Shown: in pieces, positions 4,674 to 57,949 of the stretch | How the letters are laid out: each line of letters opens with the position of its first letter | Position numbering within the stretch: the first letter of the stretch is position 1 | Assembly: GCF_030684315.1 (NCBI RefSeq) | Contig: NC_081367.1 | Span: 52,801,351 to 52,865,350 of the forward strand | Source: Stegostoma tigrinum | Taxonomy: Eukaryota | Length of the DNA: 64,000 nt | Reading direction: 5' to 3' | Translations under genes and position numbers: made by a program | The notes under the pieces: model-generated | The model's database searches: none | The model's input: the letters and a program-made list of their open reading frames with translations, nothing else | What the model was told of the DNA's origin: nothing

Positions 4674-4843
4674 CTCTGTGCTAGGGCTACGGCTACGGCT
4701 AACAGTGACTGCCTCCGACGTAACAGTTGTGCTTGGAAGGTTGGAAATATCCCAATTATGGACTGCTGGAACAATGCCAGTTGTCTTTTGAGCAAGAACC
4801 GGTTGATTATCCAACAATGAAACCTCATAAAATTCCTGAATAT
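4674..4843 (-). CDS. DLG1: DLG1 coding exon 3 (DIQEFYEVSLLDN...NWDISNLPSTTVTSEAVTVSRSRSPSTE)
   Basis: ttttccag|AT acceptor and GAG|GTAAGT donor; 170 nt, phase 1-0; matches the DLG1 pattern DIQEFYEVTLLDN...WEISSLPSSTVTSE. The next exon (KYRYQDED) was not found in the window. Confidence 0.95.
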
Positions 4844-11935: not shown

Positions 11936-14054
11936 AAAGATTAAATTTTGATTCATGCCATAAAAGGTGCTTTGATGAGAACATTGGAATGGGAAGGAGC
12001 AGAACTAAGTCTAATACAAACATGAACTTCTTGTCAATTCACTTCCAACCAGTAAACATGACAAGAGCAAAAACGAAACCCATCTAAAATGAGCATCGTG
12101 TCTATACTTTGGAGCTGCAAATACAACAACTTGATGCAATTAACACAACTTGGACACATCTGTTCAATTCAGGAGTTGCAAAATCTCTGCTGACTTTCCT
12201 TAACTGATGTGCATTCACAACAATACAAAGAATGGCTACAACTTTGCAGCCCGGAGTCAACTCTCCCACCTTACATTGTAAGCACTATTACAAAATGTAT
12301 CATTTGTCATTACGTGTCCAACAAAATGAAATTGACCACTTAACAACCAGCAACAGAAGAAACCTTAATAATGCATTGCTTATGTCATACTTTCTTCCAA
12401 GAAAACCACACTGTTTCAGAATCAGCTGTGTTGAGGGTTTTGTCTGCTTAGTTTGAATTCCTGAAATACTACAAAACTCCTTTCTATGCCCAAAAGTTTA
12501 CAAACAATTCCAAACCAACCACTTAAACTTTACATCTTCCAATAGTTGCCTCAAGTCATTTCCATTGTCAGAGTACCTGAGAAACCAAATTCCACTCACT
12601 ATTTGGCTTCATCCTTATCTTCTATGGCCCAATACCATTTCTAAACCAAAAGCCACCCAGTTCTTTCCTGAAATAACTAAAATAAAACTTAAGTATACTC
12701 TTGAGAAATCCACTGCAAGATAAAAATATCATTCACTCCCAGGAATTTGGTCATTATGATCTTTTAAAAATGGGAGAAAAACTGGTAAGGACTCAAGATT
12801 CTACAATGTGGATAATATGAATTCCTACTTCTACATTAGCCAATCATGAAAATAACTATATGTAACAGTGGGTTGAATGGATTTCAGTGCAGTAAAAATT
12901 CTTGCAAGAGACACAAAAAGGAAAATGGCAGATCAGATACCATGCCACTTGAAAGGCTTCCAGTGTTCTATTCAATCATATTGGAATCATTCAAATTCAC
13001 ATTGGCATTAAATGAATGGATTTCAGAAGGATAGTTGATTCCTTTTAAGTACCTATTCCCCCAAAATAAGATTCACAACAGATGCTGTGATCGACACCAA
13101 CCGGCTCATGAACAGAGTACATGATTTCAACTACAGTGAGAATATCCAATTACTGTGCAAGGAAATAGCACAACCTGTAACATTTGGCAAAGATAATCCT
13201 GTATTACCAGCATCTCTCTACCTTGCAGTTCCCAAAAGCAACCCATATCTAACTCCACATATGGATTTTTCAGTGCATTCTCGCTAAACACAAGAGTAAC
13301 AGAATCAGTTAATCTTACTGTACAGAGGGCCATTCGATCCACTGCTCTTCAAAATTCAGCATGCGTAAGGCACCAGAACAGGAAGAGCACAGATCTAAAG
13401 ATTTGTTGTAGGTTACAGAGATGGATACAGGTGGGAAGAAGCAAAAGGTTTGAATACAAGGATGGTAATTTTAAAACAAGAGGTATTGCTTGGTCAGTAG
13501 ACATACAAGTGACAGATTAACATGTCTTTGGGCAAGTTAGGATTTTAGCAGCAAGGCTATAAACTCACTTGAGGGGGTAGAGGATAGAAGCTGATCAGGA
13601 AACATTCGTAGAAAGGAATTAGCAGTTGAGCTGAGGCACGAGCAAGGACAGAGTGTTAGAAGTAGATGGCCTTGGTGACAAAGGAGAAGTGGAGTCTAAA
13701 GCTCAAATAGGGTGACATGGTTGCAAACATTCTGCTTCAGCCAAACATTATGGCCAGCAAGAGCTATCTAATTTGTCCTAGTGACTATCCCTTCTGCATA
13801 GCTCTGTACATTAAGTGTACATCCACTTCCCTTTAAAGTTTGGAAAATAACATCCCTGAATGGAGTCACTTCTTCCTATAAATTATAATAAGAGATGTTG
13901 TGTCTTCTAAAGCTATTCACATTAATGAATGTGAAAAACAAGGCTATAAAGAGGCTCTATAATTCAAAGTTATTCAAAATATACATTGCCAACTTTTACC
14001 AAAATTCTGACATCCTAACCTGGTGTGCAATTACTGTCAAATAATAGAGCTGAG

Positions 14055-14836
14055 GAGACAGCAAGAACTGCAGGTGCTGGAAGTCAAAGCCAATACAGTG
14101 TGGAACTGGAGAAATACACCAGATTAAGCAAATCAGGCAGAACAGAAAAGATGATGCTTCAGATTGGAACCCTTCGTCAGGACTCCCGACTTCCAGCAAC
14201 TGCCGTTCTTGCTATCTCCTCTGCTCTATTTTATTGTACTCTCATTTTCTGACAGTAATTTACACACCAGTCTAGGGATGTCAGAGTTTTGGTAAAGGTT
14301 GCCACATATATAATTCATTTTGAATTATGCAGCCTCTTAACAGACTTGTTGTTTTTCCATAAACACTATCACGTGCATTTATATATTTTTAACGTGAATG
14401 CCTTGCTTTAGAAGGCACAAAATCTCTTACTATAATTTAACTGAACATATATTTTCGATGTTTAATTAGTAAAATAATGTTGCTTTGAAGTGAGAAAGAA
14501 GAGACTTTGTTCAGGGTTGTTATTTTCCAAACTTTAAAAGAGAACTGGATGTGCACTTAAGTAAAAAGAAGTGCAGAGTCATGCAGAAGAAATAGTCACT
14601 AGGACTAATTAGATAGCTCTTCCTGGCCACAACATATTGCTGCAGCAGAGTGTTTGAGCTTTTGACTCCACATCTCCTCTGTCACTAAGACTATCTATCT
14701 GTCCCTGCTCATGACTCAGTTCAACTGCTAAATCTTTTCTACTAATCCAATGTTTTCTGATCAGCTTCTGATGAAACTTCAGCTTTCCTTTTCCTCCTGA
14801 TGCTGCCTGATCTGCCGTGTTCCTCCAGCTCCACAC
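14055..14836. mobile_element. PLE insertion enclosing an inverted copy of flanking host DNA
   Basis: Inverted tail+pLTR 14055-14182, forward tail 14188-14218, reverse complement of 13586-14054 at 14219-14769, forward pLTR 14768-14836. Confidence 0.8.
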
Positions 14837-17562
14837 AAAATAAAGCACACATCTCATCATACATAGAATGCTTTTCACTTCCCGATAAACCAAGCAAACG
14901 CTGTGCATCATTTAATCATGCATTATATTTAAATGTAATTATTCAGTATAGAAATCATTCCATTATAATCAAGTTAGAACTCCCAGTAGTTATTAAACAA
15001 AAAATTCACTTATTCCCTCACCCTCCCAAAAGAACAGCAACTAAACTATGTCAGAACAAATGGAACAGTTAAGGTTGCAAAGCTCAAACTCAACAGTGGA
15101 ATTCTCTCAGAATTTTCCAATAAGTTTGCCAACTATTCAATAAAAGCACATTGGCAACGGACCCCACCATACATTCCACTGTCTGCTGTTTGAATGTGTT
15201 TTGAAAATTCCTAATACAAACGATAACCTGATAATGCAGAAAAAATCAACATACCTTCTGGTCCTATGTCATGCAGCATATTCAGAATAGAAACGGAAAT
15301 GCAACACCACAATAGTAAGAATAAATGTTAAAACGAATCACAACTTCATTATAAGCAGATATCCATCAGAAAATTGAAAGCTGTAGTCCAATTAAGGGTC
15401 CAACTGCATACCTTTAGCTTTGCAATAAAAATAGCATTGCTTGAAACCTTTAATGGATTACTGCTATACAATTTACCAAGACTTATCCGTCACCTTCAAT
15501 TACAACAGGTGGTTCATTACAGAATGTTCCAACTTCCATCATTTGTCAATTTGCATTTTAAGTAAGATAATTGACCTAAAATTCATCAATTTTATTCAAC
15601 TGACTTATTCACTAAATGACCCTGTCTAGTTTGTTTTTCTTAACGATCATTCCAGATTGTTTTGGTTTAGAGATTTCTTGCATTTATAACTGATGTTTAT
15701 AATGGTGATAGCAACTACCCTGATAAAATGCTGAAGATGCAAAGATTAATGTTGCCTACAAAACCATATTTCCAGTTTAAAGAGCGTTAATACACATATT
15801 CTAAAACAGACACATTCATACTAGCAAGCAAACAGGTCTTCTAAAGTTATACAAATGTGTCTATAAATAGCAAAGATTTGGCGTCTATCAACCCTGCCAA
15901 AAAGTTCAAGTCAAATGAATGTGAACTCAATGTAATTTTATGGGCAAGGCAAGGGAAGCATTGACAAATATAGCACACAAGAAAACTCTCCACTTATCCC
16001 ACATTTTATTTGTTCGATGCACTCCATTCTACTGATATGTAGAATCGCTCAATCTACACCTCTACCATTGGTGATTTTATTCCTCTATTTTGAGGAAAGG
16101 TCAAGAATCACACTATTAAAATTTTAGGTCCTTGGGACCAAATCCATACCTGGTATCAATGGACTTAAATATTAGTCTATTGGAAGAATGCCAAGAAATA
16201 AGTGACTTTTGCACATAATTTTTTTTCATTTTGTAGATTTAAGACCTGGATTTTGACTAACAGAACACACAGTGGGTGGCATTATCTCTTTACTGAAAGG
16301 CAGAGCATGGAAAAGTTAGTGAGGAATGCAAAGGTGCAACCCACAATAAAAAGTTAGATACGCTGGTTCCCTTTTGGAGCAAAGCATGTTGGTCAATTGA
16401 CAGTTCAGGAAGACAACAGGAAACCTTCAGTTAATTCAAAAAAATTTAATTTGGGCTTACAGTGGCACATAAAAACATTAAAATCACTAACTTTAAAAAA
16501 AAATCCTCAAGGTACAACGTGGATACAGTTCTCCCACTCAGCCCAAATGATACAAAAATAAGGCTGTATTCTTTAGTTTATCAAAACAAAAAACCCATAA
16601 ACAGCTTCCTCAAATCAACAGCATCCGTTTTCCCCACCTCCATTATAACTGGTAGTTTATATCAAAAGACACCCCCAACACTAAACCAATTTACATTATT
16701 TGTAACGAAAATGGCTCTGCAATAGAAAACTCTTTAAAGAAATACCAATTATCCAAAACATTCAAAAGTAAGTACATTAATGATATTGTTTGTTTAATTT
16801 ATTGACTTCTTTATTTTTCTGTTGACTGGAGCAATGCAAAACAAATTGTACTTTCTTCCTTTGGCCCCAAGTAACTTATCTAAATGTTTGGCTGAAATTA
16901 TTACTTTGACCCCTATGTTAACTAGCCCCAATGGCAAAATATTTCTTCCTCAAACACTAATACAAAAAGAAAATTTACTTGGTATAGTTATTTTCTGACA
17001 TTAAAATTTACCCCCAACCATCTAGCAGCAGTCTTTATATTTTCAAAACTAAGAAACTTTTCATAGCCTCTTCCTCTCAAGTGAGAAAACAAGATACCCA
17101 AAAGAAGATACTGTTTTATAACTAGTCATCAGTTCATGCAACAATCTTGCAAATTTACAGCACATATTTATAATAATTTTAATTTTTTGGGGGTGATGTA
17201 GCAATGGAGGAAGGACGAGTGCACCGCAGGGCAGTGGAACCAAAACTATACTGTACTGACTTGGGCATTGCAAAACTTAACTTCCATATAATCTACATCT
17301 GTATCTGCATATAACAAACAAAAACTTGCCTCTAAATGGTTTACACATGAACAGCTGAAATTTAACATTAATGATCATCCATAGGTAAGTTTTTAATACT
17401 GAGTTTATCACTGCATTCCTTTCCCTAGGATGCTTCAAGTCCTCACATAATCTTGTCCTTGCCGTTTGTTTCAGTCTCTGTTCCTACAGTAAACGTTGTT
17501 ATGCTCTCCTGTAATCCTCTCAAATCCAATTCCATTCTCTTGTGCAGTCAACAGATCCAATG

Positions 17563-18645
17563 CTAAAACAGAATTGCTGGAAATGCTCAGCAGGTCCAGC
17601 AGCATTCTGCGAATAAAAATATCAGAGTTAACATTTCGGAATCCGGTGATCCTCCCTCAGAACGAATGGCAGCTTGGAAAATTGCAGTTTATATGCAGAA
17701 AATCGAGAGGTAGGGAGTCAACGAGAGAGCAAGACAGCAAGAAGAACAGTAGGACAGACAAAGGAGTTAATAACGATCTGGCTTGGAGAGTGAACAGCTG
17801 TTAATGGGGACTGTTAGTGGCCAACAATAGGTAGCATGTAATGGCAGGCTGTGATAACAAGGCCTGGTGTGTGGAGTAGGGGGCTAGGGGCCTAGGACAC
17901 AGGAGAATTTAGGCCCTAAAATTATTGAACTCCATATTAAGTCCAGAGAGCTGCAGGGTACCCAAGCAGAAAGTGAGGTGTTGTTCTTCCAACTTACGTT
18001 GAACTTCAATGGGACACTGCAGCAAACTAGACACAGCTGTTAGCTGGGAAACAGAGTGGTGTGTTAAAAGTGACAGTCAACAGGTAGCTCAGGGTCTTTT
18101 TTATGAGCAGAACATAGGTGTTCTGCGAAGTGGTCACCCAGTCTATGCTATGTTTCCCCAGTGCGGAGGTGACCACATTGTCAGCAGCAAATGCAGTAGA
18201 CTAGATTCTGGAAAATACAGGTGAAGTTTTGCTTCACCTGCAAGATATATTTGGGTCCTTGGAAAGTGGGGGTGGAGGAGGTATACGGGCAGGTGATGCA
18301 GCTTCGCTGGTTACAGGGGACGGTGGTGTGTGTACGCATGTGAACAAACAGTAGACCAAGATGTCCCAGAGGGAATGGTCTTGCGGAAGACGGGCAGGGC
18401 AGGGCAGGGCAGGGCAGGGGAATGGGTGTCTAGTGGTGGCATCTTGCTGGAAGTGGCAGAAATGACATCTGATGATCTTCTGGATGTACATGCTGGTGGG
18501 ATGGTAGGTACGATCAGTTCTGAGGAAGGGTCACTGGACCCAAAACGTTAACTCTACAATATTTTTTTCCACAGATGCTGCCAGACCTGCTGAGCTTATC
18601 TTTTGTCTCTGAATTACAGCATTAACAGTTCTTTCAACTTTTAAT
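17563..18645 (-). mobile_element. Older PLE (second family) with inverted pLTRs
   Basis: Minus ORF IIRCHFCHFQQDATTRHPFP...DHSL is homologous to the PLE ORF; pLTR inverted at 17563-17663 and forward at 18516-18645 (CTGAGGAAGGGTCACTGGACCCAAAACGTT). Confidence 0.8.
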
Positions 18646-20733
18646 AATGTGCAGCACACCATTTATAAGTCTTTGTTAATCCAAACAATCGTTTCAGCTT
18701 TATTTTTATTTCCTGCACAACCAAATTTCAATTATTTCTAATGAAACAGTTTTTGAAAAAAATCAATGTACACATTTACAACAAACTCATGTCACTATCA
18801 TCTGGAGTCTATTTACATGCACTTTCTGGAGAAATTCTACGCTAGTCAGTCAGTTTTAGCTGGGCTAGGGGTAAAATCCCAAAATTTTCCTCAACAACCT
18901 AAATAAGGTAGAAAAAGTAATATCTCCATGCTCAGGCACTATCAAAAGTTCATTCCTAGTAAACGTGTACATACAAATATTAATGAGGCTTAACTACACT
19001 ATGAAAGATGCATCCAATGTCACTGAGGTGTTTGGAGTGTTTCCAGCCCTAATATAATCAGTATCTCAGCAAGAGAGTAGACAGGAATTTTGGAAAGGGA
19101 GAAAGCAAACAAACGTACAAAAAGATTAAGAAAAAAAGTGATGCACAACGTGTGCGGACATTAGTTCCAACTTGAGCAGCTGACGATAGTGGTTTAAGGT
19201 ATTTAATGGGGAGGTATTAAGGGGAACAACAGAAAGTACAGATGTTTTAGACATCAGTTATATGGAATATTTCTTATTTTACGAAAAGCCCAATGTGTTT
19301 GCCATTTAGACAAAACAAAAATCATTGAAAAAAACGCTAGCTGCACAACTTCTCAAAAATTCACTACTGCTTTGCTGCTGGCAAGCAGATCAGTAGGTTT
19401 CCCGATGGATCTAATCCGTACGCTAGAGGATCCTACTATCCAGACAGGCAGTTTATGTGTGAACAACTTAAACTATCATTATACTTCAATCATTTGCCTC
19501 TCTTTGTAGTTAAATTTGTACTTGGATGGGGATCGCATATACACAGTACATTTGAAACCTCTGATAACCAATAAGACCTACTACATACCAGTATCATCTT
19601 GTTGACAATGACAATTCAATACTACAACACAACCTTAGTTTGTCAGAGCTATTTGCATTAGTGGTATGCTACTGAACACTTGAAAGATTAACCTTTGACG
19701 GTCACTGGACCTTTTACATTTATTTTGTTAATAGAATTATAACAGTGAAAAGGTGCCTCATATCACTGAAATCAGTACTAATAACCATTAAGTAGTGTTG
19801 GCTTGACCAATAAATATGTTTGCCAGCATGCTCACATCCCACATGAATAAAATATCAATTATTTTAATTATGTATTTTAAAGTTCAACGCAAATTAGGTT
19901 ACAGCTGATGTCGAGGGATCATTTTCTTTACAATATTATCTTTACTTCCTCCCCATCAAAACGATTTTAATCAACTGCACTATTCTCTAACAAGAGTGTG
20001 GACTTCTGATTAAAATGTCAATAAGTTTTGAAATCAGAAAAGGATTTCCCACTCTGCAAAATCTAAATTGACACCCAGAATTTTAACGCAACTCCCACTA
20101 TCCTTATTTCCACTTAAAAATCCGTAGTTATCAATACGGTTTTCCTTAAAATGTCATATCGTACCGATTCGGTATCTACTTTCCTCAGTACCACCTCCAC
20201 ACGTGTCCAACTCAGATGCCGCACACAGCCGAAACTGTTTACATTCATAAATCACGCCCCTTCCTCCATAAGGCTTCCTGTTCACCGCCCAACTGCTCCC
20301 GAATCGCATCATGTACACTGACATCAAGTTGTAATCTGATCGTTCAACACTATAAGCAGAGTTCATTAGAAATGCTGCACTGGCGCTGGCATTCATTTCA
20401 GTGTTGCGGGGTTTAAAATGACGCGACAACGTCTGTCAAATATTCGCAATTACATTGTTCGACTATTCCCGCTTTCTCGCCTCTCCGTGATTCACAGAAT
20501 CGCAAGGCAACAGGTTGTCAGCTTAAGGAGAAAGAATGATTTCGTAATCGGATATAGAAAAGCCAAGGCATTCCCGCGTTGTTAAAACGTCAAACCTGTT
20601 TCTCTGTCCAGAATATTTAAGTCCTTATGTTCAGAACAACCCATTGGTATTTTAACAGCTCTCATCGGCCGACGCTGCTGTTAACCTCAAAAAGTAAGAA
20701 GACGACTAGATATCGAGCGGTCTATGTACGTAC

Positions 20734-20865
20734 CTATTAATGCTTGAAAGAGATTACTGCGGAATATATTGATAACTCGCTCGATGGAGGCACGGAGCTG
20801 ACGGTCTTCAGTCTTGCCGAGCTTGGCACGGTAATTCTCCAGGAGCTTCAGAGCTCGCTGAGCAT
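20734..20865 (-). CDS. DLG1: DLG1 coding exon 2, L27 domain ([45 protein letters not shown])
   Basis: ctctgctcag| acceptor and G|GTACGT donor; 132 nt, phase 1-1; matches the DLG1 L27 domain. Confidence 0.96.
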
Positions 20866-21113
20866 CTGAGCAGAGACAAGGGGCAAAAATAATCACACAT
20901 TTAACGATCATTACTGGACCGATCCCGTAACAACTCCTGGAGCTACTACATCTTTGCCCAGCTTTTAGCACTTGATAGAAAATGACAAAGATATCCTTCG
21001 TTAAAATCGGTTCGTCTTAAAGTTCGTGGCAATGGTGCTAAATACAAAGTGTTAGCGGACTTTAAAAACTTTTATTAAAATGTTTCTGCAAAATTTAATA
21101 TGCTGAAACTCAC

Positions 21114-22230: not shown

Positions 22231-22272
22231 GCTGCAGAGCAGCTCACCCAAGATTTGAAACTCCAGTGCTGT

Positions 22273-25200
22273 TCCTCCCCAACACCCTGCCCCAGAACTC
22301 ACTCACCGTCCCTCCCCAACACCCTGCCCCGTAACTCACTCACCGTCCCTCCCCAACACCCTGCCCCGTAACTCACTCACCGTCCCTCCCCAACACCCTG
22401 CCCCAGAACTCACTCACCGTCCCTCCCCAACACCCTGCCCCAGAACTCACTCACCGTCCCTCCCCAACACCCTGCCCCGTAACTCACTCACCGTCCCTCC
22501 CCAACACCCTGCCCCGTAACTCACTCACCGTCCCTCCCCAACACCCTGCCCCGTAACTCACTCACCGTCCCTCCCCAACACCCTGTCCCGTAACTCACTC
22601 ACCGTCCCTCGCCAACATCCTGCCCCGTAACTCACTCACTGTCCCTCCCCAACACCCTGCCCCGTAACTCACTCACCGTCCCTCCCCAACACCCTGTCCC
22701 ATAACTCACTCACCGTCCCTCCCCAACACCCTGCCCCAGAACTCACTCACCGTCCCTCCCCAAAACCCTGCCCCATAACTCACTCACCGTCCCTCCCCAA
22801 CACCCTGCCCCGTAACTCACTCACCGTCCCTCCCCAACACCCTGCCCCGTAACTCACTCACCGTCCCTCCCCAACACCCTGCCCCAGAACTCACTCACCG
22901 TCCCTCCCCAACACCCTGCCCCAGAACTCACTCACCGTCCCTCCCCAAAACCCTGCCCCATAACTCACTCACCGTCCCTCCCCAACACCCTGCCACAGAA
23001 CTCACTCACCATCCCTCCCCAACACCCTGCCCTGTAACTCACTCGCCGTCCCTCCCCAACATCATGCCCCGTAACTCACTCACCGTCTCTTTCCAACACC
23101 CTGCCCCATAACTCAGTCACCGTCCCTCCCCGGCGCCCTGCCCCATAACTCACTCACTGTCCCTCCCCGGCGCCCTGCCCCAAAACCCACTCGCCGTCCT
23201 CTCCAACACCCTGCCTCAAAATTCACTCGTTGTCCCTCCCCAAAACCCTGCCCCAAAACTCACTCACCGTCCCTCCCCAACACCCTGACCCATAACTCAC
23301 TCAGCGTCCCTCCCCAAAACCCTGCCCCAAAACTCACTCACCGTCCCTCCCCAACACACTGCCCCAGAACTCACTCACCATCCTTCCCCAACACCCTGCC
23401 CCGTAACTCACTCACCATCCCTCCCCAACACCCTGCCCCGTAACTCACTCACCGTCCCTCCCCAACACCCTGCCCCGTAACTCACCCACCGTCCCTCCCC
23501 AACACCCTGCCCCGTAACTCACTCACCGTCCCACCCCAACACCCTGCCCCGTAACTCACTCACCGTCCCTCCCCAACACCCTGCCCCGTAACTCACTCAC
23601 CGCCCCTCCCCAACACCCTGCCCCGTAACTCACTCACCGCCCCTCCCCAACACCCTGCACCGTAACTCACTCACCGTCCCTCCCCAACACCCTGTCCCGT
23701 AACTCACTCAGCGTCCCTCCCCAACACCCTGCCCCAGAACTCACTCACCGTCCCTCCCCAACACCCTGCCCCGTAACTCACTCACCGTCCCTCCCCAACA
23801 CCCTGCCCCGTAACTCACTCACCGTCCCTCCCCAACACCCTGTCCCGTAACTCACTCACCGTCCCTCCCCAACACCCTGCCCCGTAACTCACTCACCGTC
23901 CCTCCCCAACACCCTGCCCCGTAACTCACTCACCGTCCCTCCCCAACACCCTGCCCCGTAACTCACTCACCGTCCCTCCCCAACACCCTGCCCCGTAACT
24001 CACTCACCGTCCCTCCCCAACACCCTGCCCCGTAACTCACTCACCGTCCCTCCCCAACACCCTGTCCCGTAACTCACTCACCGTCTCTTCCCAACACCCT
24101 GCCCCGTAACTCACTCACCGTCCCTCCCCAACACCCTGTCCCGTAACTCACTCACCGTCCCTCGCCAATATCCTGCCCCGTAACTCACTCACTGTCCCTC
24201 CCCAACACCCTGCCCCGTAACTCACTCACCGTCCCTCCCCAACACCCTGCCCCGTAACTCACTCACCGTCCCTCCCCAACACCCTGTCCCATAACTCACT
24301 CACCGTCCCTCCCCAATATCCTGCCCCAGAACTCACTCACCGTCCCTCCCCAACACCCTGCCCCAGAACTCACTCACCGTCCCTCCCCAACACCCTGCCC
24401 CAGAACTCACTCACCGTCCCTCCCCAAAACCCTGCCCCATAACTCACTCACCGTCCCTCCCCAACACCCTGCCACAGAACTCACTCACCATCCCTCCCCA
24501 ACACCCTGCCCTGTAACTCACTCGCCGTCCCTCCCCAACATCATGCCCCGTAACTCACTCACCGTCTCTTTCCAACACCCTGCCCCATAACTCAGTCACC
24601 GTCCCTCCCCGGCGCCCTGCCCCATAACTCACTCACTGTCCCTCCCCGGCGCCCTGCCCCAAAACCCACTCGCCGTCCTCTCCAACACCCTGCCTCAAAA
24701 TTCACTCGTTGTCCCTCCCCAAAACCCTGCCCCAAAACTCACTCACCGTCCCTCCCCAACACCCTGACCCATAACTCACTCAGCGTCCCTCCCCAAAACC
24801 CTGCCCCAAAACTCACTCACCGTCCCTCCCCAACACACTGCCCCAGAACTCACTCACCATCCTTCCCCAACACCCTGCCCCGTAACTCACTCACCGTCCC
24901 TCCCCAACACCCTGCCCTGTAACTCACTCACCGTCCCTCCCCAACACCCTGCCCTGTAACTCACTCACCGTCTCTTCCCAACACCCTGCCCCATAACTCA
25001 CTCACTGTCCCTCCCCGGCGCCCTGCCCCAAACCCGCTCGCCATCACTCCCTGGCACCCTGACACAAAACCAGCTCGCCGTCCCTCCCCGGCACCCTGCC
25101 CCAAAACCCACTCGCCGTCCTCTCCAACACCCTGCCTCAAAACTCACTCGTTGTCCCTCCCCAACACCCTGCCCCAAAACCGACTCGCCGTCCCTCCCCG

Positions 25201-26530
25201 GCACCCTGCCCCAAAACCCGCTCACCGTCCCTCCCCGGCGCCCTGCCCCAAAACCCGCTCGCCGTCCCTCCCCGACGCCCTGCCCCAAAACCCACTTGCC
25301 GTCCTTCCCCGGCGCCCTGCCCCAAAACCCACTCGCCGTCCTTCCCTGGCACCCTGCCCCAAAACCGACTCGCCGTCCCTCCCCGGCGCCCTGCCGCAAA
25401 ACCCACTCGCCGTCCTTCCCTGGCGCCCTGCCCCAAAACCCGCTCGCCATCCCTCCCCGGCACCCTGCCCCAAAACCCGCTCGCCATCCCTCCCCGGCAC
25501 CCTGCCCCAAAACCGACTCGCCGTCCCTCCCCGGCGCCCTGCCGCAAAACCCACTCACCGTCCTTCCCTGGCGCCCTGCCCCAAAACCCGCTCGCCATCC
25601 CTCCCCGGCACCCTGCCCCAAAACCCGCTCACCGTCTTGCCCCAGCGCCCTGCCCCAAAACCCACTCGCCGTCCCTCCCCAGCGCCCTGCCCCAAAACCC
25701 ACTCGCCGTCCCTCCCCGGCGCCCTGCCCCAAAATCCACTCGCCGTCCCTCCCCAGCGCCCTGCCCCAAAACCCACTCGCCGTCCTTCCCCGGCGCCCTG
25801 CCCCAAAACCCACTCGCCGTCCCTCCCCGGCGCCCTGCCCCAAAACCGACTCACCGTCCCTCCCCGGCGCCCTGCCCCAAAATCCACTCGCCGTCCCTCC
25901 CCAGCGCCCTGCCCCAAAACCCACTCGCCGTCCCTCCCCGGCGCCCTGCCCCAAAACCCACTCGCCGTCCCTCCCCGGCGCCCTGCCCCAAAACCCACTC
26001 GCCGTCCCTCCCCAGCGCCCTGCCCCAAAACCCACTCGCCGTCCCTCCCCGGCGCCCTGCCTCAAAACCGACTCGCTGTCGCTCCCCAGCGCCCTGCCCC
26101 AAAACCCACTCGCCGTCCCTCCCCGGCGCCCTGCCTCAAAACTCACTCGTTGTCCCTCCCCGGCACCCTGCCCCAAAACCCGCTCACCGTCCCTTCCCGG
26201 CGCCCTGCCCCAAATCCCGCTCGCCGTCCCTCCCCGGCGCACTGCCCGTAAACCCGCTCACCGTCCCTTCCCCGCGCCCTGCCCCAAATCCCGCTCGCCG
26301 TCCCTCCCCGGCGCACTGCCCCAAATCCCGCTCGCCGTCCCTCCCCGGCGCACTGCCCGAAAACCCGCTCGCCGTCACTCCCCGGCACCCTGCCCCAAAA
26401 CCCACTCGCCATCCTCTCCAACACCCTGCCTCAAAACTCACTCGTTGTCCCTCCCCAACACCCTGCCCCAAAACTCACTCACTGTCCCACCCTCTCACCC
26501 TGTCTGAAAACTCACTCACTGGCCCTTTCC
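22273..26530. repeat. 37-bp minisatellite, ~115 units
   Basis: Unit CCTCCCCAACACCCTGCCCCGTAACTCACTCACCGTC (period 37, e.g. 22321 vs 22358). Distal variant CCTCCCCGGCGCCCTGCCCCAAAACCCACTCGCCGTC from ~25000. Confidence 0.98.
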
Positions 26531-27640
26531 AACACCCTCCCTCACACAGCCTGCCTCAAAACTCAATCACTGTCCCTTTCTTATTCACTGGTTCCCACTC
26601 AATTTCTTTCCCTTCCTCCTAATCTGGTACAGTACCATCCTCAGATTTTGGCTCCACATCAATCATTATTGTTCACTGCCTCCAAATCAATCACTATTCA
26701 TTCTTCCTTCCAGCTCAATCAGCATCCATCCCTGCTTCTGCCTGAGTCACTGCCCCTATATGCTTACGAATGAATCATGATTTTCAGGACGGCATAATTA
26801 ATGGAATGCCACACGGATCACTGCTGGAGTCTTGATTTTTTAACACTATATATAAATAACTTGGCTGACATAAGTGAATCTGTTAGGACCAAGTTTGTAA
26901 GTTACACAACAAATAAGCTAGTAGTGAGGATGATACAATCAATCAGTTGGGGAATATAAACAGGTTAAGTGGCAAAACGTAACAAATGGGAGATGTGAGG
27001 AAATGTGAGGTTATACACTTTAGAATGGAGAGAAGAGCTGAATATTATTTAAATGGGGAATGACAGCAAAATATTGCAGATAGATTTGGTGATTCTTGTA
27101 CAGGAAACACAAAAAGTTCGCATTAAATTTCATTGGGTAACAGGGAAGTCAAATGGAATGTTGGCCTTTGTTTCAAAGTGAATGGCATATAAAGGTAAGG
27201 AAGTTTTCTAAAACTATACATGGCACTACTCAGACCACAGCTGGAAGATGACAAACAGTTTTAGTCCCCTGATCGAAGTAAAGATATATGAGCGTTGTAG
27301 GAAGTCCAGTAAATGTTACCATAAGACATAGGAGCAGAAATTGGGCCATTCAGCCCATCGAGTCTGCTCTGCCATTCAATCAAGGCTGATAAATTCCTCA
27401 ACCCCATTTTCCTGCTTTCTCCTCTTAATCCTTGATAATCAAGACAATCTCAGTCTTAAATGTACTCAATGACCAGCCTTCTGTGGCAGTGAAATCCATA
27501 GATTCACCACTCTCTGGCTGAAATGTTCATTTGGTTGATTCTAGATCTGAGGGGCATTTTCTTCTGAGGTGAGGTTGAGTAGTTTGGACTTGTACTCATT
27601 GGCATTTTCAAGAATGATAGCATACCTTATTGAAACACAG

Positions 27641-47222: not shown

Positions 47223-48920
47223 GACATAAGGCATCTGAAATTAGTATTAGTACCTGGGAGTATGATGTTATTTCTATTACTGAGACTTGGTTGAGGGAAG
47301 GGCCATATTGGCCACTAAATATCCCAGGATATGGATGCTCCAGGCATGATGGAGAGGGAGGTAAAAGGGGTGGAGGAGTTTCATTATTGGTCAAAGAGGA
47401 TATCTCAGCTATGCTGAAGGAGGGCACTGTGGGGAGACTCTAGCAGTGAGGCAACATGGGCAGAGTGCAGAAATAGGAAGGGTGTGGTAACAATGTTGGG
47501 ACTGTACTACAGGCCTCTCAACACCAAGCGGGAGATACAGGTACAAATATTTAGTCAGATTATGGAAAAATGTAGGAGCAAAAGGGTGGTGGTGATGGGA
47601 GATTTTAATTTTCCCAGCATTGACTGGGATTCACTTAGTGTTAGGGATCTAGATGGAGCAGAATTTGTACGGAGCATCCAGCAGGGTTTTATAGAGCAGT
47701 ATGTAAATAGTCCAACTTGGGAAGGGGCCATACTGGACTTGGTGTTGGGGAATGAGCTCAGCCAGGTGGTTGAAGTTTCAGTAGGGGGTTACTTTGGGAA
47801 TAGTGATCACTATTCCGTAAGTTTTAGAATACTCGTGGACAAATACGAGAGTGGTCCTAAAGGAAGAGTGCTAAACTGGGGAAAGGCCAACTACAGCAAA
47901 ATTCAGGAGGATCTGGGAAATGTGGATTGGGAGCAGCTGTTTGAGGATAAATCCATGTCTGATATGTGGGAGACTTTTAAAGAGAGTTTGATTGGAATGC
48001 AGAACAGACATGTCCCTGCGAAAATGAGTGATAGAAAGGGCAAGATTAGGGAACCAGGGATGACAGGTGAAATTGTGAGACTAGCAAAGAAGAAAAAGGA
48101 AGCATACATAAGGCCTAGGGGAGTGGAAACAGACAAAGCTTTGGAAGAATATCAGGAAAGTAGGACCAATCTGAAACGAAGAATTAAGAGGGCTGAAAGG
48201 GGTCATGAAATATCTTTAGCAAACAAGGTTAAGGAAAATCCCAAAACTTTTTATTCATACATATGGAGCAAGCGGGTAATTAGAGAAAGGGTTGGCCTAC
48301 TCGAGGACAAAGGAGGGAAGTTATGCAAGGAGTCAGAGAAAATGAGTGAGATTCTTAATGTGTACTTTGTGTCAGTATTCACTGAGGAGAGGGACATGAC
48401 GGATGTTGAGGTTAGGTTTGATTACTCTAGGTCAAGTCACCATAAGGAGGGGCGAAGTGTTGGGTAATCTAAAAGGCATTAGGGTGGACAAGTCCCCAGG
48501 TCTGGATGGGATCTATCCTAGGTTACTGAGGGAAGCGAGAGAGGAAATAGCTGGGGCCTTAACAGATATCTTTGCAGCATCCTTGAGCACAGGTGATGTC
48601 CCAGAGGACTGGAGAATTGCTAATGTTGTCCCCTTGTTTAAGAAGGGTAGCAAGGATAATTCATGTAATTATAGACCGGTGAGCCTGACATCATTGGTGG
48701 GAAGCTGCTGGAGAATATACTGAGGGATAGGATCTATTTACTTTTGGAAGAAAATGGACTTATTAGTGATAGGCAGCATGGTTTTGTGAAGGGAAGTTCA
48801 TGTCTTACCAACTTGATAGAATTCTCTGAGGAAGTGACAAAGTTGATAGATGAGGGAAGGGCTGTAGATGTCATATACATGGACGCCAGTAGGGTGTTTG
48901 ATAAGGTTCCCCATGGTACA
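47223..48920 (+). mobile_element. CR1 ORF2 segment (APE endonuclease and start of RT), truncated at both ends
   Basis: GLYYRP, VVMGDFNFPSIDW, ILDLVL, GNSDH, KSPGLDGIYPRLL, WRIANVVPLFKKG, QHGFVKGSSCLTNL. Confidence 0.93.
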
Positions 48921-53436: not shown

Positions 53437-54381
53437 ATAAAATGTGAGGCTGGATGAACACCCTCCAACCCCACCACACCCGGCACCTTCCCCTGCAACC
53501 GCAGGAAATGCTACACTTGTCCCCACACCTCCTCCCTCACCCCCATCCCAGGCCCCAAGATGACATTCCACATTAAGCAGAGGTTCACCTGCACATCTGC
53601 CAATGTGGCATACTGCATCCACTGTACCCGGTGCGGCTTTCTCTACATTGGGGAAACCAAGCGGAGGCTTGGGGACCGCTTTGCAGAACACCTCCGCTCA
53701 GTTCGCAACAAACAACTGCACCTCCCAGTCGCAAACCATTTCCACTCCCCCTCCCATTCTCTTGATGACATGTCCATCATGGGCCTCCTGCACTGCCACA
53801 ATGATGCCACCCGAAGGTTGCAGGAACAGCAACTCATATTCCGCCTGGGAACCCTGCAGCCATATGGTATCAATGTGGACTTCACCAGTTTCAAAATCTC
53901 CCCTTCCCCCACTGCATCCCTAAACCAGCCCAGTTCATCCCCTCCCCCCACTGCACCACACAACCAGCCCAGCTCTTCCCCCCCACCCACTGCATCCCAA
54001 AACCAGTCCAACCTGTCTCTGCCTCCCTAACCGGTTCTTCCTCTCACCCATCCCTTCCTCCCACCCCCAGCCGCACCCCCAGCTACCTACTAACCTCATC
54101 CCACCTCCTTGACCTGTCCGTCTTCCCTGGACTGACCTATCCCCTCCCTACCTCCCCACCTACACCCTCTCCACCTATCTTCTTTGCTCTCCATCTTCGG
54201 CCCGCCTCCCCCTCTCTCCCTATTTATTCCAGTTCCCTCCCCCCATCCCCCTCTCTGATGAAGGGTCTAGGCCCGAAACGTCAGCTTTTGTGCTCCTGAG
54301 ATGCTGCTTGGCCTGCTGTGTTCATCCAGCCTCACATTTTATCATCTTGGAATCTCCAGCATCTGCAGTTCCCATTATCTC
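53437..54381 (+). mobile_element. Penelope-like element (Neptune type), 5'-truncated, with short inverted pLTR piece
   Basis: GIY-YIG segment NVAYCIHCTRCGFLYIGETKRRLGDRFAEH; pyrimidine-rich 3' UTR; hammerhead motif; inverted terminal piece 53437-53460; TSD CAGATAATCCTTATG at 53422-53436 and 54381-54395. Confidence 0.93.
54251..54286 (+). ncRNA. Minimal hammerhead ribozyme motif in the PLE pLTR
   Basis: CUGAUGA (54255-54261), A, GGG UCUAGG CCC, GAAA (54275-54278), CG, UC; predicted cut after 54282; palindromic ACGU replaces helix III. Confidence 0.75.
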
Positions 54382-54571
54382 AGATAATCCTTATGTCAGT
54401 TTTACATGTGGTCAACGGGTGAAAATCTGCCCTGGTGTGTCCTTATTTCTTTAGTTTTTGCTTAGGCCTAATTTAATTTCGATGAAGTAAATCTGGGAAA
54501 GGAACATTCTACTCTAGCAGCTTTAAAAAAAATCTAATTCTGTTACCAAACTGATAAATATTTACATATTA

Positions 54572-55939
54572 GAGATAATGGGAACTGCAGATGCTGGAGA
54601 TTCCAAGATAATAAAATGTGAGGCTGGATGAACACAGCAGGCCAAGCAGCATCTCAGGAGCACAATTCCCAATTCCTCCGCCTCTGCCGCAATTCCCAAT
54701 TCCTCCGCCTCCGCCGCATCTGCTCCCACGATAAGACATTCCACTCCCGCACATCCCAGATGTCCAAGTTCTTTAAGGACCGCAACTTTCCCCCCACAGT
54801 GATCGAGAACGCCCTTGACCACGTCTCCCGTATTTCCCGCAACACATCCCTCACACCCCGCCCCCGCCACAACCGCCCTAAGAGGATCCCCCTCGTTCTC
54901 ACACACCACCCTACCAACCTCCGGATACAACGCATTATCCTCCGACACTTCTGCCATTTACAATCCGACCCCACCACCCAAGACATTTTTCCATCCCCTC
55001 CCCTGTCTGCTTTCCGGAGAGACCACTCTCTCCGTGACTCCCTTGTTCGCTTCACACTGCCCTCCAACCCCACCACACCCGGCACCTTCCCCTGCAACCG
55101 CAGGAAATGCTACACTTGTCCCCACACCTCCTCCCTCACCCCCATCCCAGGCCCCAAGATGACATTCCACATTAAGCAGAGGTTCACCTGCACATCTGCC
55201 AATGTGGTATACTGCATCCACTGTACCCGGTGCGGCTTCCTCTACATTGGGGAAACCAAGCGGAGGCTTGGGGACCGCTTTGCAGAACACCTCCGCTCAG
55301 TTCGCAACAAACAACTGCACCTCCCAGTCGCAAACCATTTCCACTCCCCCTCCCATTCTCTTGATGACATGTCCATCATGGGCCTCCTGCACTGCCACAA
55401 TGATGCCACCCGAAGGTTGCAGGAACAGCAACTCATATTCCGCCTGGGAACCCTGCAGCCATATGGTATCAATGTGGACTTCACCAGTTTCAAAATCTCC
55501 CCTTCCCCTACTGCATCCCTAAACCAGCCCAGTTCATCCCCTCCCCCCACTGCACCACACAACCAGCCCAGCTCTTCCCCCCCACCCACTGCATCCCAAT
55601 ACCAGTCCAACCTGTCTCTGCCTCCCTAACCGGTTCTTCCTCTCACCCATCCCTTCCTCCCACCCCAAGCCGCACCCCCAGCTACCTACTAACCTCATCC
55701 CACCTCCTTGACCTGTCCGTCTTCCCTGGACTGACCTATCCCCTCCCTACCTCCCCACCTACACTCTCTCCACCTATCTTCTTTACTCTCCATCTTCGGT
55801 CCGCCTCCCCCTCTCTCCCTATTTATTCCAGTTCCCTCCCCCCATCCCCCTCTCTGATGAAGGGTCTAGGCCCGAAACGTCAGCTTTTGTGCTCCTGAGA
55901 TGCTGCTTGGCCTGCTGTGTTCATCCAGCCTCACATTTT
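54572..55939 (+). mobile_element. Penelope-like element (Neptune type), 5'-truncated, with inverted pLTR+tail
   Basis: ORF 54628-55629 holds the RT C-terminal part (SQFLRLRRICS), a Cys linker (CNRRKCYTC) and GIY-YIG; inverted terminus 54572-54665; TSD AATATTTACATATTA at 54557-54571 and 55940-55954. Confidence 0.95.
55850..55885 (+). ncRNA. Minimal hammerhead ribozyme motif in the PLE pLTR
   Basis: CUGAUGA 55854-55860, helix II GGG/CCC, GAAA 55874-55877, GUC ending at 55881. Confidence 0.75.
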
Positions 55940-57949
55940 AATATTTACATATTATACTTTTTAAAAAAAAGCCCTTCATGAAGTCGATTCCAATGGCTGG
56001 AATTATGTTCTATCAGTAGAGTCACTTGGCTTAGCACTGCATAACCTATTCCATAACGTCATGCCACATGGAAAACTCTAGTCTGTAGGGAGTGGCAAAC
56101 TCGATCAAAAGATGTGCTTTTAATTCTATGCTCCTGAACTGTAACATTTGGAAATAATTTATGTTGCAAATGAGAAATACCAGAAAGGATATTCATAGGT
56201 TGCCATCTGTACTGTAGTGTATGATGTTCAGAGTTAGTTTACGCTAAACCTCCAGAGAACCTACCATCTGGTTAATGAACAGACAAAACACATTTATTAC
56301 TAAAAGGTAGCATACCTTCTTTCAAAGATTTGAAGTTGTTGTTTGAAGCGTTTCTAATAAATAATTGCCATAGCACAACTTTCGCTCAAAAAAATTGATT
56401 TTATTTTGATTTTGCCATTGTAGGTATTAGAAAATCACAACTTAGAAGCACGGCAGCTTTGTGCACACTTTGACACAGAATTTACCCTACTTCTGTGGGT
56501 GTGAATTACCACAAAATGCTAATTAGAAGAAAAGACTTTCTGACTGTTTTGCTGACCATCGGTGGAAGCTGTGCAAAAACTCCACAAAGTTATCAATCTC
56601 ACAGTATAATTCATGGAATTCTATCTGGACTGGCTTCCCACCACAAATACCTTTTCCAAATGTTCCATGGAATGTTTAACTTCCTGTTCTATGCTGGTTA
56701 TCCCTTGTGTTGAATAAATGCTGTTGTTTACTTGGGGGGATGTGTATATCTTTTTGTTAATTATAAAATGCCAAAAGCTATACGTAGCATCCTTGCCAAC
56801 CAGTAAAACAGACTCAGTATGAGGTGGTGCCTTTATTGGGGATTTTTGCCACAAAATAAGCAAAGGAAAAAGAGCCAGCACAAACATATGTAGAAAATAA
56901 TAGTGAGAAGTTGTTTCAACACCATACTGGATGCCACATTTCCCTAGGTTCCTGCTTGGCTTCACTAGTAGCTATTGCAGTACAAGCTTGTGTCCAGTCT
57001 CCTGACATTAGAAGATTTGAAAGTGACAGGCAGGAATCCTGACCAGGCTCAAAACCGTAAGGTAAATTGCCTTTTGGTATTTATTTCTGGGAAGTAGGCT
57101 CTGAAACCAACAACAATGACTGCGGTGAGAACCCCCTTTAACTAATTTTCTTGCCACACTTTTGGGAACAGTTTCATTCAGACTTGTGCCATGTAAAGGC
57201 AATGCAGATGGTCTAAACGCAAAAAACGCAGTTGATTCCTATCAGTTCAGGTGCAGAAAATGTTGTGCAGGTGGAAGACATGAAAAGAGGAAATTTGGCA
57301 CCAGCATGTGCTGAAAACAGAACAGCGGAGGTGTTTTCATAGAATCAAATGGCACTGGAGGAAGCAATTTAATCTGTGTAGATTCTGTCACATAATTCTG
57401 TCACATAAAGGATGGTAAGATCAGCAAGATTACTGAGAATGCAAACCTTACCTCAGAATCAGGCCTTTCCTTTTGTTGTAGAGTATGGTGCTTATGGTAA
57501 GGGTTTTATTGAATAATTGCCGATTTGCTAGCAGTCAGATTGGGTGCTCAATGACAATGTGCTCAGAATCATTGGCGTCTCTGAGGTGAGGCAAGAGTCA
57601 ACACAAATATATTCAATCTGAATGTGAAAGAACATGGACCAGATAGCGGGAAGGAGTGGCAATCAGGCTCCGGCCTTGTGTAAGTATATCCATTAACTTC
57701 AAGGGTACAGATAATTTACTTCTATGAATTTGATGCTACTCCCAAACAAACAATCCTTCCCTTTCCCTGCTGGTAGACTTCTCCTTTGTTCCATCGGCTG
57801 CCTTTTTTATTGTTGTTTCCAACACCATTTACCCCTCACCTGAGAAAACTGATTTAGCAGTCTGGGAATTCTGCCAGTGCTGCTCTGTCATGGGCTTCTC
57901 TGTTATGCACAAGACGTCCATGCAGTGAGTAGCTCAATGTTGACTTCAA

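Follow-up and report, generated by a model that had tools for sequence, protein, structure and literature searches.

Penelope-like elements probably fold back during insertion and now and then copy adjoining host DNA in mirror image

How does the DNA of a host intron come to stand in mirror image on the far side of a retroelement end? The question is raised by a locus of Stegostoma tigrinum within a window of 64,000 nucleotides (the whole stretch of DNA analysed: assembly GCF_030684315.1, contig NC_081367.1, positions 52,801,351 to 52,865,350 of the forward strand; positions below are those of the window unless a locus is named), where a long imperfect inverted repeat has one terminus of a Penelope-like element (PLE) at its centre and another at its edge. 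The original prediction took the locus for a single insertion event in which synthesis folded back at the PLE end, copied ~500 bp of DLG1 intron DNA and then switched back to PLE RNA. The analysis described here suggests that PLEs likely do fold back while inserting and now and then copy neighbouring host DNA, and it gives the last step of the event a different form.

The inverted repeat and its host gene

The inverted repeat at 13586-14769 is confirmed. Aligned with the reverse complement of the arm 14188-14769, the arm 13586-14085 matches at 399 positions and differs at 66, with 152 gap columns spread over 15 events (85.8% identity once gaps are excluded, K2P 0.16). The alignment score of 358 compares with a maximum of 27 in 100 shuffles, and blastn of arm against arm gives an E value of 1e-52; the three word pairs that had been quoted as examples are all present in the arms. 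The mirror copy proposed earlier is thus real, but its host portion has to be restated, since the innermost 31 nt of either arm are PLE tail and the host portions measure 470 bp and ~552 bp. The centre of the palindrome is a 102-nt spacer consisting of pLTR body.

Inverted pairs of dispersed repeats occur nearby (e.g., the L118 pair described below), and the genome search ignores very common words, both of which favour reading the arms as copies of a dispersed repeat or a foldback transposon that arrived independently. Under that search, however, the arm sequence matches itself alone in the 3.2-Gb genome, no further copy was found in 1.0 Mb of fetched DNA, and the contig depth over the arms is ~23, as for single-copy DNA, vs >200,000 over the far PLE piece. 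As for an assembly artefact, one contig from a second sample of the same organism covers 12900-14832 with zero differences, which rules it out. Contigs of a related species also contain both arms together with the far PLE piece; no empty site was seen in this sole relative reached. We regard the probability of either explanation, dispersed copies or artefact, as negligible.

Judging from the exons recognised around it, the insertion sits in an intron of a DLG-family gene (Table 1). The exon near 4841 was picked up with a motif which we take to mark DLG exons, a MAGUK_N_PEST exon lies farther downstream on the same strand as the L27 exon, and the L27 exon matches SAP97/DLG1 in the PDB. The genome has four L27_1 paralogues, among which the window copy scores best against the Pfam model. 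The PDB match and the four-paralogue comparison make DLG1 the likely identity of the host, and the predicted DLG1 intron therefore stands as an intron of a DLG-family gene, with the name DLG1 likely. In each of the four DLG-type paralogues (C17, C6, C18 and C58) the L27_1 exon is kept. The first DLG exons in the window adjoin a 4.3-kb GC-rich, strand-skewed tandem array with a ~37/74-bp period (22258-26577).

Anatomy of the insertion

The features collected in Table 1 read, by their order and orientation, as one PLE insertion: a tailed end, then the tail and 470 bp of host DNA copied in inverted form, a tail-less end and a decayed target-site duplication (TSD).

Table 1. Features of the fold-back locus and the neighbouring host exons (window positions)
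Feature	Position	Strand	Basis
L27 exon of the host DLG gene, upstream of the intron	20735..20869	-	Pfam L27_1 model, PDB match
Start of the next DLG exon; end unmapped	4782..4841	-	motif scan
Original host intron DNA, probable template (left arm, host part)	13586..14054	.	alignment; single-copy genome search and contig depth
Decayed TSD, left copy	14041..14054	+	9/14 to right copy; own inverted copy 11/14
PLE 3' end 1: full tail, pLTR body, decayed hammerhead core	14055..14187	-	blastn to other window copies
Fold-back junction GACT-CCC-GACT	14181..14191	.	read from sequence
Mirror copy of the tail's outer 31 nt	14188..14218	+	26/29 identical to central piece
Host part of the right arm: TSD and flank in inverted copy	14219..14769	.	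arm alignment
PLE 3' end 2: tail-less pLTR piece, hammerhead stem II deleted	14766..14836	+	blastn, profile, sequence comparison
Decayed TSD, right copy	14837..14850	+	sequence comparison

The traits of an endonuclease-bearing PLE are present, namely outward-facing ends, a tail on one end and a TSD, here decayed. The asymmetry noted in the original prediction, with the tail complete on the left and the right end without it, is borne out by both PLE ends: the far piece stops at CTCCACAC and has no tail. It also has CTGATGAAAC where young copies have CTGATGAAGGGTCTAGGCCCGAAAC, so that stem II is gone; the collapsed hammerhead remarked on earlier is therefore there, as a trait peculiar to this copy. 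In young copies a minimal hammerhead core, CTGATGA..GAAA, folds with a 4-bp stem, and Rfam run over 12500-19500 returned no hammerhead and no other family above chance. End 1 also matches a PLE profile at 14057-14183, a profile that itself included this copy.

Both junctions are legible. At the fold, the GACT of the cDNA end could pair with AGTC at 14082-14085. At the far side, the arm stops exactly where the next pLTR piece begins, as had been described, and the two share TTCT (14766-14769). What the earlier reading overlooked is the decayed 14-bp TSD: the inverted arm has AAAATAGAGCAGAG vs AAAATAAAGCACAC on the right, 11 of 14 positions matching, a level attained by 0.9% of 20,000 random positions given equal slack, and the left original copy matches less well. 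The ordinary PLE insertions of the window have clean TSDs of 10-20 bp. From this arrangement we infer that end 1 is a first cDNA, primed on the top strand, and the far piece a second one, primed on the bottom strand.

The copy at the locus is itself ORF-less, and the family is identified as Penelope-like, on sequence grounds, through a young relative elsewhere in the genome (L105:1848-4529, minus; G000:C1:1398034-1408033). This near full-length PLE has an 894-aa open frame with RVT_1 (E 5e-5) and GIY-YIG (E 0.0035) matches, both under the Pfam cut-offs, as well as DKG and YIDD motifs, and it ends in the same pLTR type as the locus. A further GIY-YIG match lies within the window at 54622-55626 (E 7e-4).

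Several other elements were seen in passing. A young head-to-head PLE with a TSD of ~15 bp and an open GIY-YIG frame occupies 54568-55929, among young PLE insertions spanning 53461-55951, in which 53461-54341 is 99% identical to 55060-55940. A long open frame at 47418-48464 appears by eye to be the nuclease region of a CR1/L2-type LINE. Outside the window, a young PLE with TSD has landed in a head-to-head insertion belonging to another Penelope family (L139:5518-7053), and a ~330-bp non-coding PLE derivative consisting of pLTR, hammerhead and the start of the 5' region (L043:2521-3278, also in L020, L023, L024 and L040) forms tandem and head-to-head arrays with arms 98-100% identical; it resembles retrozyme-type repeats.

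Younger cases and the frequency of fold-back

The genome was searched for paired outward-facing tail 16-mers at short gaps, which gave 41 places with a gap of 4-59 nt, 158 with 60-125 nt and 719 with 126-260 nt, single 16-mers numbering 180,491; the first listed 35, 50 and 35 of these, respectively, were fetched for inspection. A fourth pattern, two tail-less ends, gave 53 places, 15 of which were fetched. Palindromes extending into host DNA were found at 2 of 35 places in the shortest gap class (L174 at G000:C2:63332553-63335622, L197), 9 of 50 in the middle one (L010, L012, L026, L028, L038, L044, L047, L049, L055) and 6 of 35 in the longest (L230, L235, L236, L237, L245, L250). The tail-less class yielded one in 15 (L218), a mirror case in which it was the tail-less end that folded, the far piece having the tail; this indicates that either PLE end is able to fold. 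Altogether 18 of the 135 pattern-selected places have the same anatomy, palindromes of PLE multimers alone and an ambiguous extension of ~10 bp (L242) being left uncounted. The pattern required two outward PLE ends, and the fold lies inside PLE cDNA at the locus and in 18/18 young cases under search patterns that detect that kind only. The earlier idea of scanning for inverted duplications at PLE ends has in this way, by pattern-guided sampling, produced 18 younger cases, which back a PLE-linked origin of such host palindromes and, together with the retained TSD, a single insertion event with fold-back at a PLE end and copying of the flank.

The host arms of the young cases span ~15-875 bp, and the 12 pairs that were aligned are 93-100% identical. 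Both the far PLE piece and a TSD (~9-17 bp) are found in 14 of the 18; L026 has the TSD only, bringing the cases that retain it to 15, and L044, L055 and L230 have neither. Mismatches are absent from the arms of L010, L038, L049 and L174 over 75-875 bp, and all four have kept far piece and TSD; two of them, L010 and L049, further have a far piece that matches the central one at 99-100% identity. L047 and L038 carry private tail variants common to the central piece and the folded copy. At the far junctions of nine cases, 0-3 bases are shared or 1-2 are inserted. On the other hand, the template piece that remains is shorter than its folded PLE copy in L038, L047, L174, L235 and L250.

These details bear on a two-step history, in which an ordinary head-to-head PLE insertion came about and the flank was copied into it later, through breakage or slipped replication at the small hairpin of that insertion. 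Head-to-head PLE insertions are already short palindromes, and the copies that exceed their template imply that centres get reworked, as such a history would have it. However, four young cases combine mismatch-free arms with an intact TSD and both PLE ends, the near identity of far and central pieces in L010 and L049 would make the two steps nearly simultaneous, and the insert lies invariably between the two cDNA ends. We consider two steps unlikely.

Two further observations concern repeated folding. L250 (G000:C1:117804140-117808343) is a double fold within one TSD, ~170 bp of host DNA having been copied inverted and then forward again, and L245 (G000:C1:98935403-98939622) is another within one TSD, in which both ends apparently folded.

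How often this happens can be estimated roughly from two sides. Scaled to all places found, young events come to ~2, 28 and 123 for the tail classes of 4-59, 60-125 and 126-260 nt (95% ranges 0.3-8, 14-50 and 47-242), roughly 0.1% of tail 16-mers, which is a floor because exact 16-mers were needed at both ends and longer loops are uncounted. The other side comes from an unselected set of ~0.94 Mb outside the window, made up of 70 loci centred on young tails and 45 plain 10-kb stretches. Its ~255 insertion clusters (269 with the window) contained no further fold-back case and no fold centred in host DNA, giving an upper bound near 1.2%, with loci scanned singly and events at locus edges lost. 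A rough rate of 0.1-1% of insertions covers both estimates.

Counted with the window, 1.0 Mb contained 15 inverted pairs, one of them the locus at 13586-14769. The pairs in L060, L061, L071, L135 and L139 are head-to-head PLE insertions of other subfamilies (a second L139 row is the same locus as the first), that in L118 consists of two dispersed repeats, and those in L095, L100, L109, L126, L137, L160 and L170 were set aside, their arms being multi-copy and their centres without a PLE end.

A probable course of events and its known relatives

We put the probability at about 85% that the locus arose in one event, in which a new end folded back, was extended into the host and the two ends were then joined. 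The element nuclease would make a staggered cut with 3' overhangs of ~14 nt, as the TSDs suggest, and both 3' ends would prime cDNA, one at the tail start site and the other at an inner start site. The left cDNA end would then turn onto its own strand, probably by the GACT/AGTC pairing, and be extended through the tail, the TSD and ~550 bp of host DNA, the template being displayed by the continuous copy. The extended end would finally join the right cDNA at the four shared bases TTCT, visible in the junction, by a pathway that kept the TSD, and the product would later have decayed as ordinary intron DNA does. The decayed state of the TSD at the locus, the 3 of 18 young cases without TSD and far piece, and the presence of the insertion instead of an empty site in the one relative reached count against this model.

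The template can be named with some precision. The inverted arm runs unbroken through tail, TSD and host, and this, together with the private variants of the young cases, indicates that the primed top strand was copied, because right after priming the joined tail, TSD and host DNA exist only there. The same point bears on the possibility that the second cDNA invaded the upstream duplex and copied toward the cut, or that sister ends fused after replication. Either would yield short shared bases at the far junction, and sister fusion would allow for the longer piece on either side of the centre. But where the cut leaves 3' overhangs, TSD and tail are missing from the bottom strand on the left, yet the copy has both. 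Sister fusion would seem to require another break within 15-900 bp, after which the TSD-bearing original right end would have to be rejoined. Both routes appear highly doubtful. The single fold-back needs an addition of its own, since the five folded copies longer than their template are more than snap-back alone can explain, and trimming before hairpin closure or a later deletion in the centre would be needed.

The part of the original prediction that does not hold is the final return to PLE RNA for the far piece. That a PLE piece begins exactly at the arm end in 14/18 young cases and at the locus is what a reverse transcriptase going back from host DNA to its RNA would leave. The polarity is wrong, however: a strand extended on PLE RNA reads antisense, whereas the far piece is sense on the strand that holds the inverted arm, and the right host flank and TSD adjoin its start-site end. 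From this the far piece is concluded to be complementary to another cDNA, one that was primed at the other side of the cut. It is also dispensable, being missing in 4/18 young cases. Only an antisense RNA template could rescue the return to RNA; this possibility is raised in PMC3846280, and PMC11167929 places the start sites on sense RNA. We give this version very little credence. Where the comparison is informative, in three cases, the pieces elsewhere being identical or too short, identity to the central piece is lower for the far piece than for the folded copy (77 vs 90% at the locus, 86 vs 100% in L012 and 89 vs 96% in L038).

Which enzyme extends the folded end is a separate matter, on which we lean slightly to a host end-joining polymerase such as polymerase theta, acting after resection, over the PLE reverse transcriptase. 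Far junctions with 0-3 shared or 1-2 inserted bases are as expected of end-joining, and those of the PLE fold-backs look compatible with polymerase theta templated insertion. Like the products of polymerase theta snap-back and synthesis-dependent end joining, they are local inverted templated inserts with 0-4 shared or few inserted bases and with repeated rounds. Polymerase theta inserts are mostly tens of bases long, unlike the PLE arms, half of which, among those measured, are several hundred bases. It is a more tentative proposal, which we find possible though not probable, that the PLE reverse transcriptase itself turns back and, displacing a strand as it goes, copies chromosomal DNA over as much as ~900 bp, in a side branch of its normal two-ended integration. 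If it does, PLE-rich genomes, that of Stegostoma tigrinum among them, would gain hundreds to thousands of inherited palindromes from one enzyme.

The outcome as such is already known for LINE-1, and the PLE version is a rare recurrent by-product of Penelope integration. For LINE-1, PMC10191854 describes three foldback inverted duplications of 52-220 bp (0.3%), which according to the same source and bioRxiv 10.1101/2024.12.14.628481 arise when a resected end anneals to itself, is extended and is then ligated, the TSD being kept. The PLE events are similar in the inverted DNA beside the insertion, the short shared bases at the fold, the kept TSD and the rarity. Unlike the LINE-1 examples described there, which are somatic or cell-line events with the fold on the end without cDNA, they have the fold inside the cDNA, so that element and host are copied together, both ends carry cDNA, and arms of up to 875 bp occur. 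They are also inherited, one of them being common to two species. With the canonical insertion of endonuclease-bearing PLEs (PMC3846280, PMC8557442, PMC11167929) they share two outward 3' ends, one of them tailed, within one TSD, and differ in the inverted copy of the adjacent target between the two ends. PLE inverted copies, tails and minimal hammerheads are described in PMC8557442 and PMC4209133, and PMC3846280 inferred PLE self-priming from palindromes at inverted junctions and reported unrelated host DNA captured between pLTRs. In the literature searched, with older subscription Penelope/Xena papers outside its coverage, we found no report of a PLE mirror-copying its flank.

The events bear on how Penelope elements complete integration. 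In vitro, an anole PLE protein cuts and extends both strands, and reverse transcription begins at two sites bounding the tail (PMC11167929). A fold-back appears to freeze an integration intermediate in which cDNA begun at different start sites is attached to the two target ends, the TSD preserves the staggered cut, and one end stays free long enough for hundreds of flank bases to be copied. Such events support two-ended priming in vivo and give the in vitro system already in use a product that can be scored. At a few per thousand, the 180,491 exact tail 16-mers would also mean that PLEs steadily supply the host with palindromes, and these can be unstable in DNA form and, within introns, can give rise to long double-stranded RNA.

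At the DLG locus itself the copy shows no sign of function. The related species differs by ~6-7% in the flanks; most of its arm contigs are ~6% different (one short contig 14%) and its flank contigs 5-7%, and this likeness leaves no sign of constraint on the arms. Several of its indels restore letters lost by one arm here (13603, 13932, 14652). Since the arms are 0.16 apart, the insertion is roughly two to three times older than the split from the related species, equal rates and no gene conversion being assumed. A hairpin in the DLG1 pre-mRNA, as proposed earlier, is predicted only: the transcribed strand is modelled as a single long hairpin at -617 kcal/mol, with a predicted arm duplex of -562 vs -160 for 10 shuffles and a longest perfect run of 21 bp.
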